This document shows, piece after piece, positions 4,009-16,339 of a DNA stretch of 32,914 nucleotides. The notes below the pieces were generated by a model that saw nothing but the letters and a program-made list of their open reading frames with translations, had not been told where the DNA came from and made no database searches. Origin of the DNA: a virus (taxonomy: Duplodnaviria > Caudoviricetes); IMG/VR virus record IMGVR_UViG_3300043493_000106, positions 1 to 32,914 of that record. One strand, written 5' to 3'. The position numbers and the translations under genes were made by a program. How positions within the stretch are numbered: position 1 is the stretch's first letter; every line of letters starts with the position of its first letter.

Positions 4009-4521
4009 TTACTTGAAGAAGCCCTTGAGGCCGCTGAAATCGTGGCGCGCGCCGCTCGCCGCGCGCTGCTTCTTGGTCGGGTTCGGCTTGGTGCCGGGGT
4101 CGTAGCGGACCTGCTGCGGCACGTCGCCGCCGCGCCAGCTCTGGACGCCGCGCACGCTGCGCTGCTTCGGCGGGGTGACGGCGGTTGTCGCGGTCGGCCG
4201 TTTGGTCGGCACGACGGTCGTGGTCTGCCGCGTGCTCCTCTTGACAGGAGGCGTAACGGCAGGGGCCTTCGTTTCAACCTTCTTGATGTAGCGGATCGGG
4301 TTGGCGCCGACCGTCTCGCCGCCTAGCTCATCACCCAGCTTGCGCAGCGTGCTGCGCGAATCGGTGGAGCTGCGATCGTCCGGCTCATAGGTGAACTTGG
4401 TGTTCGGGTGGGCCGCGACGTTGGTCGGGTCCTTGGTCTTGTCGGGCGTCCAGCCACCGAACATGCTGCCGATGCCAGAAACGACATCACCCACCGTCCA
4501 GTCGCGCGTCTTCTTGGCCAT
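4009..4521 (-). CDS. Basic hypothetical protein
   Basis: 170 aa, K/R/T/P-rich; strong SD GAGGAG upstream. Confidence 0.7.
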   Translation of the reverse strand: MAKKTRDWTVGDVVSGIGSMFGGWTPDKTKDPTNVAAHPNTKFTYEPDDRSSTDSRSTLRKLGDELGGETVGANPIRYIKKVETKAPAVTPPVKRSTRQTTTVVPTKRPTATTAVTPPKQRSVRGVQSWRGGDVPQQVRYDPGTKPNPTKKQRAASGARHDFSGLKGFFK

Positions 4522-11665: not shown

Positions 11666-11869
11666 TCAGCCGTTCCTCCTGGCCTGCAGCAGCTTGCCGA
11701 GCAGCACGCCGAGCCGGCGGCGGCAAAGCGACAAATCGTCCATCAGGCCGGGATGCCAGCCGCCGTCGTTCTGCATGCGCCTGAAGCGGTCCAGCTCCAG
11801 CCACCACATCTCGACGGCCTTGAGCAGGTCGAGCGGGTCGACGTCGTTGTCGTGATCATGGTTCGTCAT
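11666..11869 (-). CDS. Hypothetical protein
   Basis: MTNHDHDNDVDPLDLL...; ATGA overlap with the terL stop. Confidence 0.55.
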   Translation of the reverse strand: MTNHDHDNDVDPLDLLKAVEMWWLELDRFRRMQNDGGWHPGLMDDLSLCRRRLGVLLGKLLQARRNG

Positions 11870-13425
11870 GCTGCTAGCCCTGACCTGTTCTTGCGGGGAA
11901 CCCACATCCCCTTGCTCGATCCAAAACGGAGATGGCGGATCTGCGCGTGTTGTCTGAGCGCATCCGCGGCGTGCTGGTGGCCGTTCTTGGCGATCAGCGG
12001 CATCCACACGCCCATGCGCTCGTTCCACTGCTTGGAGAAGCCATCCAGATGCCTCAGCCCGAGCGCGCACTTCTCCTGGTCGAAGAAATACGTCGTGAAT
12101 GCCTCGCGCAGCTGGTCGATAGCATCCGGTACGTGAGGCGTCCGCTGCACGGTTTCGATGTTCTTGATACCGAGATCACGCAGCAGGTCGACGTAAGTCT
12201 TGAGGTGCTCCGCACCAGGACGACGATGATTGGCGTCGTGCGGAAGATAATGCCAGCCATAGACATAGGGACGCTCGCCCAGCTCGCGGACATAATATGA
12301 AGGCGGCTCGCTGCCCGCCTCGATGTAGTCGATGAAGTGCTGGCGGCCGCCGAAATCCTGATGCAGCCAGATCGCGGTGTCGTCGGCGGTGCCGAGGTCC
12401 CAAAAGCTGTTGACCGGGCGGCCGGGGTCCCACGGCACCTTGGTGATCCTGCGCTCGACGCGGGCCTTGGACATCTGGGCGGACAGCCACAGGCCGTCGG
12501 CGCTGACGGTGAACGCCTCCTCCAGCGTCGAGGGATACTGGCTGAACATCTTTTGCTGGTCGTCGCCGAACAGATTGCGGCGGGTCAGCACGTACCAGGC
12601 GCGCTTGGCGGCCGAGATGTCGCGGTGGACGTCACCTTCGAGCCGGTAGAAATAAGCGTCGTCATTGCTGTCGAAGGCGACGTCGCGCGGGTCGGCTTCA
12701 TACTCCGGCGCATCCCACCAGCTGGCGAAGTGCAGCTTCCACTCGATGGCGCCGGGCTTGCGACCGCTGTCCTCGGCCTGCTGCGCCGATCGCACCATGT
12801 CGGCGAAAATGCCGTAGGGCGTCTCGACGGTGCTCTCGATGCAGATCACGCCGTGCTGGTCGACGGAGGGAAGGCTGCCGGTCTGGATCTCGACGGCGCG
12901 GTCGGGATAGCGCTGGCAGATGCGGCCGTACTCCGAGACATGCAGATACTGCAGCGTCGAGCCGCGGGTCGAGGTGGCGACGATCAGGGAGCTGTCGGTG
13001 TTGAAGGCCAGCTCGGTCTTGGTCAGGTACTTCAGCCCGACCATCTCCTTGACCAGGGTCGGAAGGTTGTCCCAGGCGAAACGGACCTTCTGCTCGAAGA
13101 TCACCCGTGCGGTGTCCTCGTCCTGGGCGATGATCGCGGCCTGGGTGTTGGGCTGAAAGAGACAGGCGTCGAGCATCATCAGCTGGATGACGGTGGAAAA
13201 TCCGCGCTGCCGCGCCTTTGGGATCAGATTGCGGTAGTGAATATTGCTGAGAAAACGCTGCTGCTCGGGCCACGGCCGGAAAGTAACGACCTTGCCGCGC
13301 TTGTCCGTGATCTTGTAAAGATTCGACAAGCGCCAGCCGGCGTCGGCAATCGCTGCTTGCATCTCGGACTGGTCGAGTTTTTCGAACGGCTTGCCGTAAT
13401 AGCTCGGCAGGGTTGCAACGTTCAC
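11866..13425 (-). CDS. terL: Terminase large subunit
   Basis: 519 aa; Walker A-like PKARQRGFST, Walker B LHVSEYG, ESTVE coupling motif, RNase H-like nuclease WDLGTADDTAIW...LPHDA...HAADALR. Confidence 0.95.
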   Translation of the reverse strand: MNVATLPSYYGKPFEKLDQSEMQAAIADAGWRLSNLYKITDKRGKVVTFRPWPEQQRFLSNIHYRNLIPKARQRGFSTVIQLMMLDACLFQPNTQAAIIAQDEDTARVIFEQKVRFAWDNLPTLVKEMVGLKYLTKTELAFNTDSSLIVATSTRGSTLQYLHVSEYGRICQRYPDRAVEIQTGSLPSVDQHGVICIESTVETPYGIFADMVRSAQQAEDSGRKPGAIEWKLHFASWWDAPEYEADPRDVAFDSNDDAYFYRLEGDVHRDISAAKRAWYVLTRRNLFGDDQQKMFSQYPSTLEEAFTVSADGLWLSAQMSKARVERRITKVPWDPGRPVNSFWDLGTADDTAIWLHQDFGGRQHFIDYIEAGSEPPSYYVRELGERPYVYGWHYLPHDANHRRPGAEHLKTYVDLLRDLGIKNIETVQRTPHVPDAIDQLREAFTTYFFDQEKCALGLRHLDGFSKQWNERMGVWMPLIAKNGHQHAADALRQHAQIRHLRFGSSKGMWVPRKNRSGLAA

Positions 13426-13841
13426 GGCTTGGTCTCCAGAGCGAGGCCAAATTTTTCTTCTGCGGCAGCGACCAATGCCGGGTCATGGTTGTCAATCCAT
13501 GCCAGCGCCTCCCGCAGCCTCTCGATTTCCCCCGCCTGCCGAGCAAGAGCAATGGCGGTGTCCTTGGCGTCGACCCGCAACCGCTCGATCTGCGCCTCAA
13601 GGTCTTTGATGCGCTGCACCAAACCGTCGCCAACGACATGGCCAGCGTCGGAGATGGGTTCGTTGTAGTCCCTCACCCGCGTCTCAACTTTCTGAACCGT
13701 GAATTTCACACCTTTGCCATCGCAGTCAGTGCAATGCTTGTCCCGCCAGGCACCTTCTGCATGATCAAACCAACTGATTGTGCCAGTCCCCTTGCAGGCT
13801 TCGCAGTCGTCACAATCTTCGATCTCCTCGTAATCGCTCAC
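13422..13841 (-). CDS. DnaJ-type zinc-finger / coiled-coil protein
   Basis: GTG start 13841; CEACKGTG and CTDCDGKG (two CxxCxGxG) followed by a heptad coiled coil. Confidence 0.65.
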   Translation of the reverse strand: MSDYEEIEDCDDCEACKGTGTISWFDHAEGAWRDKHCTDCDGKGVKFTVQKVETRVRDYNEPISDAGHVVGDGLVQRIKDLEAQIERLRVDAKDTAIALARQAGEIERLREALAWIDNHDPALVAAAEEKFGLALETKP

Positions 13842-14047
13842 GGCTCGGCCTCGAACGCCGACGCGACGATCAACGCGGTGAGGTAACGCTGCTCGGCGTC
13901 GTGCGCGGCCTGCCAGTAGCCGTCGGTCATATGGCTCTTGTCGCGGCCGGCGCCGAGGACGGCGTGGTCGCGCCGAAGTGCGGCGAGGTCGCGCTCCTGA
14001 CGATACCGCTCGACGACGGCGGCAACCACGGGCGGCACCACGGTCAT
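13838..14047 (-). CDS. Hypothetical protein
   Basis: 69 aa with overlapping start/stop on both sides. Confidence 0.5.
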   Translation of the reverse strand: MTVVPPVVAAVVERYRQERDLAALRRDHAVLGAGRDKSHMTDGYWQAAHDAEQRYLTALIVASAFEAEP

Positions 14048-14292
14048 CGGTCGGCCTGGTCGCCGGGAATGCGCCGCGCGGCTGCCTCATAGTACTTGAC
14101 CAGCAGCGCGGCGGCTTGCTGCGTCGCGTCATCCATCGACATGCCCGGCCCGATCAGCAGGCGGCCGTCGCGGGTGATGGTCAGTATGGTGCCGCCGCCG
14201 CCGTCGCCGCCGCTGAACGTCACGTTGAAGGCGTCGGGCTCGGTGAAGACGCCGGCGATGCGGCCGGCAGGCGGTGCGTCTTCGTCAGCCAT
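14044..14292 (-). CDS. Hypothetical protein
   Basis: MADEDAPPAGRIAGVF...; ATG 1 nt after the upstream stop. Confidence 0.6.
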   Translation of the reverse strand: MADEDAPPAGRIAGVFTEPDAFNVTFSGGDGGGGTILTITRDGRLLIGPGMSMDDATQQAAALLVKYYEAAARRIPGDQADR

Positions 14293-14293
14293 G

Positions 14294-14527
14294 TCACTTC
14301 TTCCGCGGCTTGGTCGGCTTGACCTGGTTGTTCCAGCCGCTGCTGCCGGCCTCGCGGTTGGCGAGGCCGCGGTCCAACAGCTCGGTGTTGAGCTTGCGGT
14401 TGGCGTTGCGCAGCTTGTCGACCTCCTTGTTGGCGTAGCGGCCGCCAACATTGGCCTCGGCCTGCCTGAGATTGGCGGTGATGACCTTGCCCGGCTTGAT
14501 CAGCGGGCGTCCCTTGCCTGTCGGCAT
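14294..14527 (-). CDS. Small basic hypothetical protein
   Basis: 77 aa, K/R-rich; GAAGGAG SD. Confidence 0.6.
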   Translation of the reverse strand: MPTGKGRPLIKPGKVITANLRQAEANVGGRYANKEVDKLRNANRKLNTELLDRGLANREAGSSGWNNQVKPTKPRKK

Positions 14528-14528
14528 G

Positions 14529-14768
14529 TCACTCTCCTTCGCGCGGCTTCTTGGTAGCTGCCTTGACAGCCCACATGGCTGCGTCCTCGACGTGCGTTAT
14601 CGCCAACGCCTTCAGCCGCTTGACCTCGGGGTCGCCGCGGTCCTCCACCCACTGGTCGATATGGTCGATCAGCTCGGCGGCGAACCGCTTGATCGAGGTG
14701 ACATTGCTGTCGCCGGAAGGATTGAAGTCCTTGCCGACGCGGTATTCTCCGAGTGTGAGTGTGGCCAT
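14529..14768 (-). CDS. Acb2/Tad1-like helical-hairpin protein (putative cyclic-nucleotide sponge)
   Basis: 79 aa; RVGKDFNPSG...IKRFAAELID...RLKALAITHVEDAAMWAVKAAT; the C-terminal RxxALAxTxxExAxMWxxKA pattern recalls this family; GGAG SD before ATG 14768. Confidence 0.6.
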   Translation of the reverse strand: MATLTLGEYRVGKDFNPSGDSNVTSIKRFAAELIDHIDQWVEDRGDPEVKRLKALAITHVEDAAMWAVKAATKKPREGE

Positions 14769-14821
14769 GAGGTTAACTCCGTTGTGCCAGATCGCCAGGT
14801 AAACTGTCTTCATGATTTGCT

Positions 14822-14897
14822 GCGGGACGGCCGTGCACGTCGAGGCATCACGACCGTCCCGTCGTCCCGCCGTTTCCTTGGAGGGGTCGCGACGGGA
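14822..14897 (-). promoter_or_regulatory. Structured leader with mutually exclusive hairpins
   Basis: 14823-14835 pairs with 14849-14861 (12/13, one G-U in the mRNA); alternatively 14857-14864 pairs with 14890-14897 (8/8). Confidence 0.45.
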
Positions 14898-14939
14898 TGT
14901 GGCTGTGGTAGCACATGCGGGTGGCCTGGCCTAGGGGAG

Positions 14940-15260
14940 GTAATTCGGTTTTTGTTGCTTTAAAACCACCAGAAAAGGGGACCCGTTTTTAGTTAGGTAT
15001 AAGGTCCTATACTTGGAAAAGGGACCCAAATACCAGCAATCTCTGACCTAGTAATCATAGGAATCCGGTGCCGGGACTCCAACGCCAATCCAGTTGCCAC
15101 CCCCGGCCCCCTTGGGCCGGGACCCAGCATCGACTCGTGAGCGAAGCGAACGCCACATGCGCGCGCAGCGCGCCGAGGGCGTAGCCCGAGCGCGAACGAA
15201 GTGAGCAAGACCACTAAAGCGTGAGCGAAGCGAACACACTACGCCGAGCGTAGCGAGGCG
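14940..15260. other. Non-coding structured region: AT-rich block, GGGACCC repeats, G/C tract and six GNA-triloop mini-hairpins (candidate packaging site / genome terminus)
   Basis: GAAAAGGG(G)ACCC at 14972 and 15016, GGGACCC near 15119, CCCCCGGCCCCC near 15100, C-GNA-G hairpins 15136-15260; lies just 3' of terS. Confidence 0.55.
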
Positions 15261-15299
15261 CCTTACGATCTACGGCGCCGCTGCGCCTCTAGGTTGTGG

Positions 15300-15980
15300 T
15301 CACTCCTCCTCGTCCCGCGGGTTTAGCTCGCCTGGGTTGTGCTCGATGGTGCGGATCTCGGGTTCGGCGGGCCGAATAACGTTTCCAGCGATTTGCTTGA
15401 ACAGTTCTTGCAGGGGCGAATCGAGGCCGATTGTCACCTTGTCGCTGAACGCATTTACTTTGATGTGCTTGCCCAATAGTTCCAGTCGCCGGGCGCGGTC
15501 GACCAGGACGACATCCACCTGCTGGCCTATCTCCTCGGAGCGGTTGGCGCCGCGTCCGTAAAGCGTCGTGGTGCGTATCGTGCTGACGAGTCCGCGTCGC
15601 CAAACTTCCGGCCAGGATCTCACCGGCTTAAGCTGATGCGTGACCGGGTCGTAAAGGTCGCCGGCATCGGCGTTCACCTCTTCCAAAAGGCGCCGCAAAA
15701 CGAAGTCCGAATCGACCTTCAAATCGGCAGCGCGCAAGGCTTGTAGCTCAGCCACACGGGCCTGGATTCTGGAATCTACTAGCAAGGCTGGACCTTGCCT
15801 GGACGCATAGGCTGGGGTGTACCCGGCACGCTTCGCGGCCTGGGTAGCGTTCAGATCAACCAGATACTCCAGGACGAACCGTTCTTGCAGCCGTGTAAGC
15901 GGCTTGACGTCCCCGCTGCGGGCCGTAGACGGGCCGCCAGCGCGTTTCGTGGCCTTGGGTGGGGGAATATGCCGGTTCAT
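15300..15980 (-). CDS. terS: Terminase small subunit
   Basis: LTRLQERFVLEYLVDLNATQAAKRAGY...LELLGKHI (Terminase_2 pattern); ATG 15980 overlaps the upstream stop. Confidence 0.92.
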   Translation of the reverse strand: MNRHIPPPKATKRAGGPSTARSGDVKPLTRLQERFVLEYLVDLNATQAAKRAGYTPAYASRQGPALLVDSRIQARVAELQALRAADLKVDSDFVLRRLLEEVNADAGDLYDPVTHQLKPVRSWPEVWRRGLVSTIRTTTLYGRGANRSEEIGQQVDVVLVDRARRLELLGKHIKVNAFSDKVTIGLDSPLQELFKQIAGNVIRPAEPEIRTIEHNPGELNPRDEEE

Positions 15981-16339
15981 GCCTCTCGCGCGTCCTGGGG
16001 CGCCACCGCCGACGAAAGCACGGCCATCCCAGGCCATTCCTTCCACCGCGCAAATCGTGGCGTGCCTGCGCTGTCGTCAACCGTAAGCCCGGCGCCGCGC
16101 TCGATGACAGCGATCAAGCCAATCATCCCGTCGCGATGCCGGAACCCGATGCGCCCCACCGCACCATGCTCGCGCAGCACACGACACGCCTCCAGGTCGG
16201 CATTGATCGCTGAACGAACAATCTCGGCGCCATCGAGCGTCACCCGATAAGGCTGGCCGCGCTCGCGGGCGGCGCCTGTCGGCTCGATATCCGCCACATA
16301 GTCGAGCGTCACTGATCTGCCGCGTATCGTCACTTGCAT
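15977..16339 (-). CDS. Conserved hypothetical phage protein
   Basis: GGAGG SD; ACRVLREHGAVG...IERGAGLTVDD...PRFARW pattern. Confidence 0.7.
   Translation of the reverse strand: MQVTIRGRSVTLDYVADIEPTGAARERGQPYRVTLDGAEIVRSAINADLEACRVLREHGAVGRIGFRHRDGMIGLIAVIERGAGLTVDDSAGTPRFARWKEWPGMAVLSSAVAPQDAREA

Follow-up and report, generated by a model that had tools for sequence, protein, structure and literature searches.

The DNA examined here (the window, 32,914 nucleotides in full) is a contig of an uncultured soil phage, a Bcep22-like podophage, whose IMG/VR record is linear, estimated to be 58% complete, and 64% G+C. From approximately 22.5 kb down to base 1, genes are read leftward and encode, in this order, a primase/D5-type helicase, the small (terS) and large (terL) terminase subunits, a P22-like portal, a capsid protein, and SU10/GP4-type adaptors. 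Genes read rightward begin at 22.6 kb and encode a DUF932 protein, a PD-(D/E)XK exonuclease, a family A DNA polymerase, a ParB-like protein, and a SNF2 helicase. Scans for tRNA and tmRNA genes returned no hits. TerL of the window is 40-55% identical to its matches in the TerL regions of Microcystis, Sinorhizobium, Ochrobactrum, Agrobacterium, Ralstonia, Serratia, and Klebsiella phages, several of which are annotated as TerL and several as "hypothetical protein". In a complete 65.5-kb relative (G001), the sole giant ORF (3,958 amino acids) encodes a DarB-like polyvalent protein, and giant proteins of this type are a hallmark of Bcep22-like podophages. According to the accessible text of the JC1 paper (PMC9144972), Bcep22-like phages are circularly permuted and probably package by headfuls.

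The features of the noncoding gap that follows terS are collected in Table 1 together with the flanking genes. The coordinates given for terS are those of the longest ORF, and the real start possibly lies further inside. The gap holds an array of short hairpin units 44 bp downstream of the terS stop, and a third GGGACCC motif, in addition to the two listed in the table, occurs at 15119. The gene for the large, 856-amino-acid primase/D5-type helicase sits 4.2 kb upstream of the array, and matches to its protein are limited to PHROG "DNA primase" and DUF5906, both for the C-terminal half. When positions 14500-16100 were compared with cultured phages by BLAST, the sole match was 52 nt of the terS gene of phage CSP3. 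The array of a close relative (L142) found no match in the same kind of search, for which low-complexity masking is probably responsible. Two minus-strand ORFs that overlap the array (14993-15214 and 15048-15239) were considered as genes and rejected, given their flat G+C content per codon position (0.58-0.67) and the variable length of the array among relatives.

Table 1. Genes and sequence features at the terS-proximal gap of the window
Feature	Position	Strand	Evidence or remarks
terL, large terminase subunit	11866..13425	-	phrog_2 and phrog_26724/2472; 1.7 kb downstream of array
Acb2/Tad1 hairpin-domain gene (anti-defence sponge family)	14529..14813	-	PF24729, E = 5e-13; first gene past gap
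Noncoding gap, 486 bp	14814-15299		between terS and Acb2/Tad1-like gene
13-bp leader hairpin	14823..14861	-	just upstream of Acb2/Tad1-like gene
A+T-richer segment	14940..15060	.	40% G+C in 64% G+C genome; GGGACCC at 14978 and 15021
Strong GC hairpin, CCCGGCCC-CCTT-GGGCCGGG	15102..15121	.	directly past array in gene sense; no T-run behind
Unit 1, CGT-GA-GC-GAA-GC-GA-ACG	15136..15152	+	sequence, motif scan
Unit 2, GCGCGC-GCA-GCGCGC	15159..15173	+	perfect hairpin, 6-bp stem, GCA loop, no GA steps
Unit 3, C-GA-GGGC-GTA-GCCC-GA-G	15174..15190	+	sequence, motif scan
Unit 4, GC-GA-AC-GAA-GT-GA-GC	15192..15206	+	inner and outer stems exchanged relative to unit 1
Unit 5, GT-GA-GC-GAA-GC-GA-AC	15221..15235	+	copy of unit 1
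Unit 6, CGCC-GA-GC-GTA-GC-GA-GGCG	15242..15260	+	sequence, motif scan
Inverted repeat GGCGCC-(11 nt)-GGCGCC	15257..15279	.	between array and terS stop
Single canonical GCGCAGC mini-hairpin motif	15280..15286	- (gene-sense)	adjoins terS stop; read from sequence
terS, small terminase subunit	15300..16046	-	PF03592 Terminase_2, E = 1.4e-24; phrog_51, E = 3.7e-31

The original prediction described six C-GNA-G units on the + strand at 15136-15260, and a renewed reading of the sequence agrees with it letter for letter. The GNA loop is present in all six units (GAA in three, GTA in two, and GCA in one), and five of them carry a GA step that faces another GA step. Every loop is closed by a 5'-C/3'-G pair on at least two stem pairs, with inner stems of GC/GC, AC/GT, GGGC/GCCC, or GCGCGC/GCGCGC. 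Tandem sheared G.A pairs form where GA lies opposite GA, each in a pyrimidine-GA-purine context, and all 10 GA steps of this array are of the Y-GA-R form (T-GA-G, C-GA-A, or C-GA-G). The array's + strand is purine-rich (36% G, 27% A, and 6% T) and is the template strand for the leftward genes. Therefore, mRNA made across the array would carry the nonfolding complement. The reverse strand of the array region contains no units.

The chemistry of such hairpins is covered in the accessible text of the review PMC13037366. Among 64 triloops, GNA alone gives a mini-hairpin, and d(GCGNAGC) melts at 70-76 C with N = A as the most stable form, compared to 39 C for the RNA version r(GCGAAAGC). As DNA, the mini-hairpin withstands 3' exonuclease, and SSB binds only poorly to a related construct. 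The same text places motifs of this kind at the G4 origin, at RSF1010 ssiA (RepB' primase), and at N4 promoters.

To judge how often the units arise by chance, the pattern GA-stem(2-4)-GNA-stem'-GA was scanned over the window. Five units were found on the + strand, all at 15139-15256, and two elsewhere, both on the - strand, which corresponds to five units per 118 nt compared to two in the remaining 65.8 kb (both strands). Shuffled sequence does not give such arrays readily. Among 20,000 dinucleotide-preserving shuffles of 15130-15265, 19,591 contained no unit, 405 contained one, four contained two, and none reached three, against five in the real sequence; in 200 shuffles of the whole window, the biggest cluster was two. 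Units 1 and 5 share an identical 16-mer, indicating that the units are mutual copies rather than six independent events. What the shuffle statistics demonstrate is therefore a family of repeats rather than six hairpins of separate origin. By nearest-neighbour folding, whether as DNA or as RNA, neither strand of the region was exceptional (z from -0.54 to +1.0); models of this type cannot reproduce the stability of the mini-hairpin, as stated in the accessible text of PMC13037366.

Searches of IMG/VR returned one close relative with TerS as the query and 19 loci with TerL. All five contigs whose TerL is 80-86% identical to that of the window (L138-L142) hold two to six units in the homologous gap, nearly all of them opposite in strand to the genes, and the units are absent from all 14 loci with TerL of at most 56% identity. 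The layout of the gap is the same in the six genomes, which in gene order have the terS stop and the array, then a strong GC hairpin followed by a short conserved block and an A+T-richer stretch with two to four GGGACCC motifs. Beyond this stretch come a leader hairpin and then a gene that differs between genomes. GGGACCC/GGGTCCC repeats lie at the corresponding place in all five relatives, and the GC hairpin at 15102..15121 has a counterpart at the matching place in L142, L138, and L141. Furthermore, the leader hairpin is kept in L003/L142 with a paired change (T-C/G-G versus C-G/C-G). Additional GNA hairpins occur on the gene-sense strand of L142 and L138, in the stretch that separates terS from the main array. 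A member of the Acb2/Tad1 family is the first or second gene past the gap in L139, L140, and L142, and in four of the six genomes the island opens with an anti-defence gene of this type. Because the array heads this variable island, it may belong to an early survival kit of the phage.

The unit design is conserved in these genomes even where the letters are not. Outside the GA steps, each of the 23 units found in the six genomes has one or more Watson-Crick pairs, and in 22 of them there are two or more. The first unit reads GT-GA-GC-GNA-GC-GA-AC in four genomes (N is A in the window, C in L142, C in L138, and A in L141), and in L139/L140 it reads CC-GA-AC-GAA-GT-GA-GG, with both stems changed and the design kept. 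The compensatory stem variation that had been noticed within the window is therefore seen between orthologous units as well (GT/AC plus GC/GC versus CC/GG plus AC/GT). Every match to GARCGNAGYGA falls within this one cluster in each of the five clade records, and all six matches in the complete (100%) 65.5-kb genome lie in the array cluster. Close relatives differ in unit number, from two to six, and within any one genome the units have been homogenised. Spacers and downstream genes differ among the six clade members, and the position of the array is fixed. Within the clade, the array is a single-copy, strand-specific element that is conserved at this one locus.

A wider search of IMG/VR for two GAGCGNAGCGA units within 30 nt gave an estimated 810 stored stretches. 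Among the 122 loci listed, the fetched stretches range from 33% to 67% G+C. Some matches are coding repeats (e.g., L053) and many are GC-rich islands in noncoding DNA, including islands inside A+T-rich contigs of 33-41% G+C (L036, L063, L121, and L025). In 10 further viral records, units are mostly in one cluster and on one strand. Nor is the motif pair phage-specific, as bacteria and archaea often carry it, in an estimated total of about 22,000 stretches; about half of the 129 bacterial and archaeal clusters examined lie inside long open frames. Proximity to contig ends was evaluated as a separate signal and set aside, as 15 of about 79 loci have array matches within 600 nt of an end compared to approximately 8 expected, which is too weak an excess and is confounded by assembly breaks.

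From the viral contigs we assembled 334 distinct units and examined covariation at the positions that are not fixed by the search pattern. The first pair outside the GA steps is Watson-Crick in 242 units versus 123 expected under independence (C-G in 149, G-C in 49, and T-A in 40), and the second outer pair is Watson-Crick in 192 versus 103 expected. Slid controls gave 0-33% Watson-Crick pairs, mostly 20-33%. The base that precedes the first GA is C or T in 70% of the units. This outer-pair covariation fits a predicted one-strand fold with tandem G.A pairs and not a duplex protein site. That both arms of one strand carry GA, flanked by pairs that covary, likewise suggests a one-strand fold rather than a duplex site with twofold symmetry. 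The loop base N is A in 181 units, C in 64, T in 45, and G in 44. Two RNA candidates were also rejected, namely a CsrA-type sponge RNA, given that N = G occurs in just 44 of the 334 units, and a hammerhead-like core, for which the CUGA box is absent from the sequence.

The genomic context of the arrays in other phages was assessed by scanning ORFs against PHROG for 69 of the 80 loci with flanks. A first batch covered 21 loci, with 64 of 103 ORFs of at least 110 amino acids chosen by hand, and a second batch covered 48 loci with ORFs of at least 200 amino acids; nine loci without such an ORF and two duplicates (L015 and L093) were left out. A terminase gene lies within 2.5 kb of the array in 17 of the 69 loci. 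In 16 of these 17, the array precedes the terminase start, and in eight (L018, L025, L036, L047, L070, L086, L032, and L044) the two are at most 700 nt apart. Relative to the terminase gene, 11 arrays are antisense and six are sense. Because L018, L070, L025, and L047 are interrelated, the count of 17 overstates the number of independent cases, which we estimate at about six to seven lineages. Furthermore, the largest noncoding space is often just the one that precedes terminase genes. Neither Burkholderia phage CSP3 nor Microcystis phage Mwe-JY25 has the array next to terS/terL, and Pelagibacter phage HTVC027P lacks it there too, even though contig L025, whose TerL is 74% identical to that of HTVC027P, does carry it. 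As judged from sequence, the array is dispensable at the family level. Other motif pairs are associated with replication genes. In an inovirus-like contig (L055), one lies on the gene strand beside a rolling-circle initiator, others lie within "nicking at origin" genes (L019, L057, and L083) or an O-like initiator ORF (L059), and another directly follows a primase-helicase gene (L024).

Conservation, confinement to a single cluster, and covariation uphold part of the original prediction of a functional single-stranded DNA structure on the template strand, in that they point to a constrained, strand-specific single-strand fold; the N4-type promoter use that had been offered among its functions fared poorly (see below). 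The reading that we tentatively prefer, and which we regard as plausible but short of probable, is that the array is a single-stranded-DNA signal of the packaging-start region. It is based on the array being single-copy, on its place beside terS/terL in a probable headful packager, and on its recurrence before terminase genes in several lineages. This recurrence of a terminase-proximal position in other phage groups favors a link to packaging. In a phage group thought to package by headfuls, the duplex near the terminase genes might be opened by a helicase-nuclease that enters from the pac cut, by replication, or by supercoiling. Once opened, the purine-rich + strand would fold into a row of highly stable hairpins, and the pyrimidine-rich complement, which is unable to fold likewise, would remain exposed. 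The hairpin row could mark or shield pac-proximal DNA or could serve terminase as a structural landmark. A marking or shielding role is suggested by the published poor SSB binding and 3' exonuclease resistance of such hairpins. Several observations count against the packaging reading. One assembled contig from each of two sequencing runs spans the whole gap without any difference, passing straight through the array (contigs of two further runs leave portions of the gap uncovered, and none of these contigs bears on termini or expression), and the orientation of the array relative to terminase is not fixed in other phages. Moreover, the roles described for such hairpins in the accessible text of PMC13037366 are priming or promoters, and none is packaging. 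The dispensability of the array at the family level, the interrelatedness of several terminase-adjacent loci, the abundance of the motif pair outside phages, and the lack of a nearest-neighbour folding signal weigh on the same side.

The main rival to the packaging reading is a priming or origin element of the ssi type, which we place on the doubtful side of possible. At such a single-strand initiation or loading site, the hairpins would exclude SSB from the displaced + strand and the phage primase-helicase would start the complementary strand, as has been proposed for G4 and for RSF1010 ssiA/ssiB (PMC13037366, accessible text). The C-GNA-G roles documented in that text (the G4 origin, RSF1010 ssiA with RepB', and N4 promoters) are all on single-stranded templates, and a template-strand hairpin that is unique in its replicon would be found, like the array, on one strand at one locus per record. 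The phage does encode a large primase/D5-type helicase, although its N-terminal domain matched no type in a PDB sequence search or in NCBIfam. The gap has an origin-like layout, with repeated GGGACCC, the 40% G+C segment, and GC hairpins, and the GNA hairpins on both strands (in L138 and L142, and one in the window) recall ssiA/ssiB. However, cumulative GC skew has no turning point at the array in either the window or the complete relative. The motif pairs by or in replication genes at the six loci named above favor the ssi reading, but the array itself sits in the packaging module and not in the replication module. In addition, it is absent from related phages that must replicate too, and known ssi signals need fewer than five or six tandem units. 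We consider it unlikely that the array is a nonadaptive or selfish repeat, in which GC-rich hairpin units expand by slippage or copy-back synthesis at a tolerant intergenic site and persist by descent without a job. Changing unit number, homogenisation within genomes, and the identity of units 1 and 5 are what such a process would leave, as are the sporadic distribution among related phages, the GC-rich islands within A+T-rich contigs, and the abundance of the motif pair in bacteria and archaea. A 151-nt contig from one run, in which 15105-15215 is replaced by 80 other letters, also agrees with it, although the joint is weak, with only 23 letters on one side. Selfish repeats would nevertheless be expected to disperse, and here there is one locus per genome, at a position fixed in six of six clade members despite their differing spacers and downstream genes. 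Compensatory stem changes that preserve the design, and the recurrence of arrays upstream of terminase genes, also argue against a jobless repeat.

The remaining explanations have less in their favor. An element acting on transcription is improbable in our view, whether as the 3' end or insulator of the terS transcript (e.g., a Rho-loading stretch before the GC hairpin) or as a + strand small RNA. Tandem G.A pairs form in RNA as well as in DNA, and all six genomes have the order terS stop, array, strong hairpin, A+T-richer region, leader hairpin, and next gene. Sense RNA over the array is less structured than its shuffles (z = +1.0) and has more C (36%) than G (30%), but 30% G is high for a Rho site, and units in the mRNA sense give C.U mismatches. 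No intrinsic terminator (GC-rich stem plus T-run) was scored on either strand of 14400-15700, where the 15102..15121 hairpin did not score, and no sigma-70 consensus promoter was scored in the gap region. Rfam covariance models gave no hit to the window at gathering score, chance-level matches only for 14700-15400 at E up to 10, and unrelated RNAs only on 13 array loci. The RNA mini-hairpin is also far less stable than the DNA form (PMC13037366, accessible text), and one array per 65-kb genome would be odd for a terminator class. Given the mixed orientation in other phages (11:6) and the lack of an Rfam match, a role at the DNA level is the better reading. A still poorer candidate, to which we give little credence, is a set of repeats that TerS or a regulator would bind as duplex DNA, folding playing no part. 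About six short repeats over 125 bp by terS do resemble repeat-built pac and cos sites, and the core can be read as a tandem AGCGN-AGCGA pentamer. However, GA on both arms of one strand lacks twofold symmetry in a duplex, the outer positions covary as pairs and ignore the pentamer period, units such as GAACGAAGTGA and GAGGGCGTAGCCCGA break the pentamer yet keep the hairpin, and phages whose terminases are unrelated carry the identical core. Promoter hairpins of the N4 kind, which a virion RNA polymerase would read, are extremely improbable. The accessible text of PMC13037366 reports that N4 mini-vRNAP reads a template-strand hairpin containing GCGGAGC, and our units are on the template strand of the leftward genes, but they point away from the downstream gene starts. 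No PF00940 match was found in three relatives, one of them complete, and this blank is a weak one because control genomes were silent too. Furthermore, the sole giant ORF is DarB-like, and its match to the vRNAP PHROG is limited to residues 508-736 versus profile positions 212-422.

A signal at the start of packaging would bear on a general problem, as the marking of the headful packaging start and the survival of DNA ends against host nucleases are poorly understood in most phage groups. A signal that exists only as a folded single strand would escape ordinary annotation and standard folding programs; the GA-stem-GNA-stem-GA pattern is simple to search. Should the array instead serve priming, the G4/RSF1010 paradigm would then apply to large double-stranded DNA phages as well. 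A broader proposal, which we put forward as speculative though possible, is that the arrays are undescribed, widespread, strand-specific cis elements of tailed phages that act only as single-stranded DNA. On this view, every array would keep SSB off and withstand exonucleases, and would serve as a landmark placed a single time in a genome, where the packaging (or replication) module begins. One possibility is that it halts helicase-nucleases (e.g., RecBCD) coming in from the terminase cut, which would make it a structure-based analogue of Chi that does not depend on the host. The other is that synthesis of the complementary strand starts from it once its own strand has been displaced.

Several known systems share features with the array. 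One is the d(GCGNAGC) mini-hairpin of Hirao, Miura, and colleagues (PMC13037366), with which the array shares the C-GNA-G triloop and a closing C-G pair on G-C, and all six units comply. N = A, the form reported there as most stable in vitro, is also the commonest in our wider survey. The array adds the GA/GA step and one to four pairs, in five to six repeats at one locus of a double-stranded DNA phage, and no such array appears in the accessible text of PMC13037366. Likewise, no published description of such arrays was found in the open-access full-text literature. The structural motif itself is known, and that literature yielded no single-locus, G.A-clamped array beside terminase genes.

The complementary-strand origin of G4 and RSF1010 ssiA/ssiB resemble the array in that each has, at a single cis site, hairpins confined to one strand and capped by GNA-type loops, along with a replicon-encoded primase. 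Those sites work only in single-stranded DNA and lie in replication origins of single-stranded DNA phages and plasmids with one to three hairpins, whereas the array has five to six units between terS and terL. Early promoters of N4 likewise use a template-strand hairpin with a three-base, GNA-type loop, but the stems of the array are interrupted by G.A steps and do not precede early genes, and no vRNAP was found in the complete relative. The P1 pac hexamers, SPP1 pacL/pacR, and the R sites of lambda cosB are repeat-built, duplex protein-binding sites. They share with the array a unique site of 120-160 bp with several short repeats by the terminase genes, and differ in that the conserved features of the array are those of a one-strand fold. 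REP/BIME elements and the GC clusters of yeast mitochondria are also GC-rich imperfect palindromes with fast-changing copy number and a patchy distribution among relatives; these have many dispersed copies, in contrast to one locus in every clade record examined (five of five). Finally, Chi is a host-specific sequence of 5-8 nt that is read by RecC/AddB. Like the array, Chi is strand-specific and orientation-dependent, and it acts on DNA unwound from an end such as a terminase cut. Unlike Chi, which is not a hairpin and is tied to its host, the hairpin core of the array is found in phages of 33-67% G+C.

The non-coding gap between terS and the Acb2/Tad1-like gene carries sequence features other than the mini-hairpin array. 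A 13-bp leader hairpin immediately upstream of the latter gene is conserved in the close relative whose TerS is 77% identical, and its stem there differs by a paired change. It therefore probably forms a genuine structure, at the RNA or DNA level, that controls the downstream operon. Three of the four GGGWCCC matches in the window also cluster in this gap, flanked by A/T runs. All five relatives carry two to four copies of the motif at the equivalent place, and in Pelagibacter phage HTVC027P, as well as in viral contigs L047 and L025, GGGGTCCC lies upstream of TerL too. We regard the motif as a candidate, either for a regulator site or for an element of a late promoter. Coordinates of these and other features are collected in the table.

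Features of the window, its relatives and other motif-bearing loci
Feature	Location	Strand	Remark
236-aa protein gene	window 13422-14132	-	CXXCXGXG zinc-finger stretch
Acb2/Tad1 hairpin-domain gene	window 14529-14813	-	
Same gene, relatives	L139:949-1170, L140:3853-4080, L142:4082-4378		
Leader hairpin	window 14823-14861	-	
GGGWCCC matches	window 14978-14984, 15021-15027, 15119-15125		in gap
Mini-hairpin units	L138:3650-3700	+	back-to-back with next
Mini-hairpin units	L138:3722-3798	-	
DarB-like polyvalent protein, 3,958 aa	G001 (L285:49-11922)	-	
GC-rich block	L018:2250-2800, L070:900-1380		upstream of TerL
Motif pairs	L019, L057, L083 (around 2501-2535)		
Motif pair	L055:2501-2534		
Motif pair	L059:2501-2535		
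GOLLD RNA; tmRNA-like match	L088:4691-5036; 4196-4278		
OTKONC RNA	L063:454-623		

The Acb2/Tad1 hairpin-domain gene, a member of the anti-CBASS/anti-Thoeris sponges, is the first or second after the gap in four of the six clade genomes; in relative L138, a gene of the N4 gp49/Sf6 gp66 family replaces it. Between terS and terL lies a variable island, and an anti-defence gene stands at its opening. In the 236-aa protein encoded here, the CXXCXGXG zinc-finger stretch weakly matches the DnaJ central domain, anti-TRAP and a Q-like antiterminator PHROG; this protein may regulate the late operon. The giant DarB-like protein of the complete relative G001 combines cell-wall hydrolase, M15 peptidase, methyltransferase, ART-PolyVal and LPD39 domains, and its equivalent would sit past the left end of the window.

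In two pelagiphage-like contigs, the palindrome GCGACAAAATGTCGC stands three times, together with a GGCGCC-TGC-GGCGCC hairpin, ahead of the mini-hairpin units located upstream of TerL; HTVC027P lacks this entire GC-rich block and retains nothing but the adjoining GGTACC and A+T-rich sequence. Motif pairs also fall within genes of the phrog_91 family (“nicking at origin of replication”) at three loci, within an O-like initiator ORF (L059), and, in an inovirus-like contig (L055), 146 nt ahead of a rolling-circle initiator gene, the pair there being on the gene strand. Such places, in or beside initiator genes, are known sites of replication origins in model phages. Two large arrays (L088 and L063) have structured RNAs nearby. 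Bacterial and archaeal genomes often carry the same pattern of two units, in an estimated 22,000 or so stretches, and these matches include non-coding arrays of up to nine units in genomes of 39-49% G+C (e.g., L203, L207, L218 and L243).

In the complete relative (locus L138), two units (CCGAGCGCAGCGAGG) on the gene-sense strand adjoin four on the opposite strand, and this back-to-back arrangement is reminiscent of paired ssi signals.
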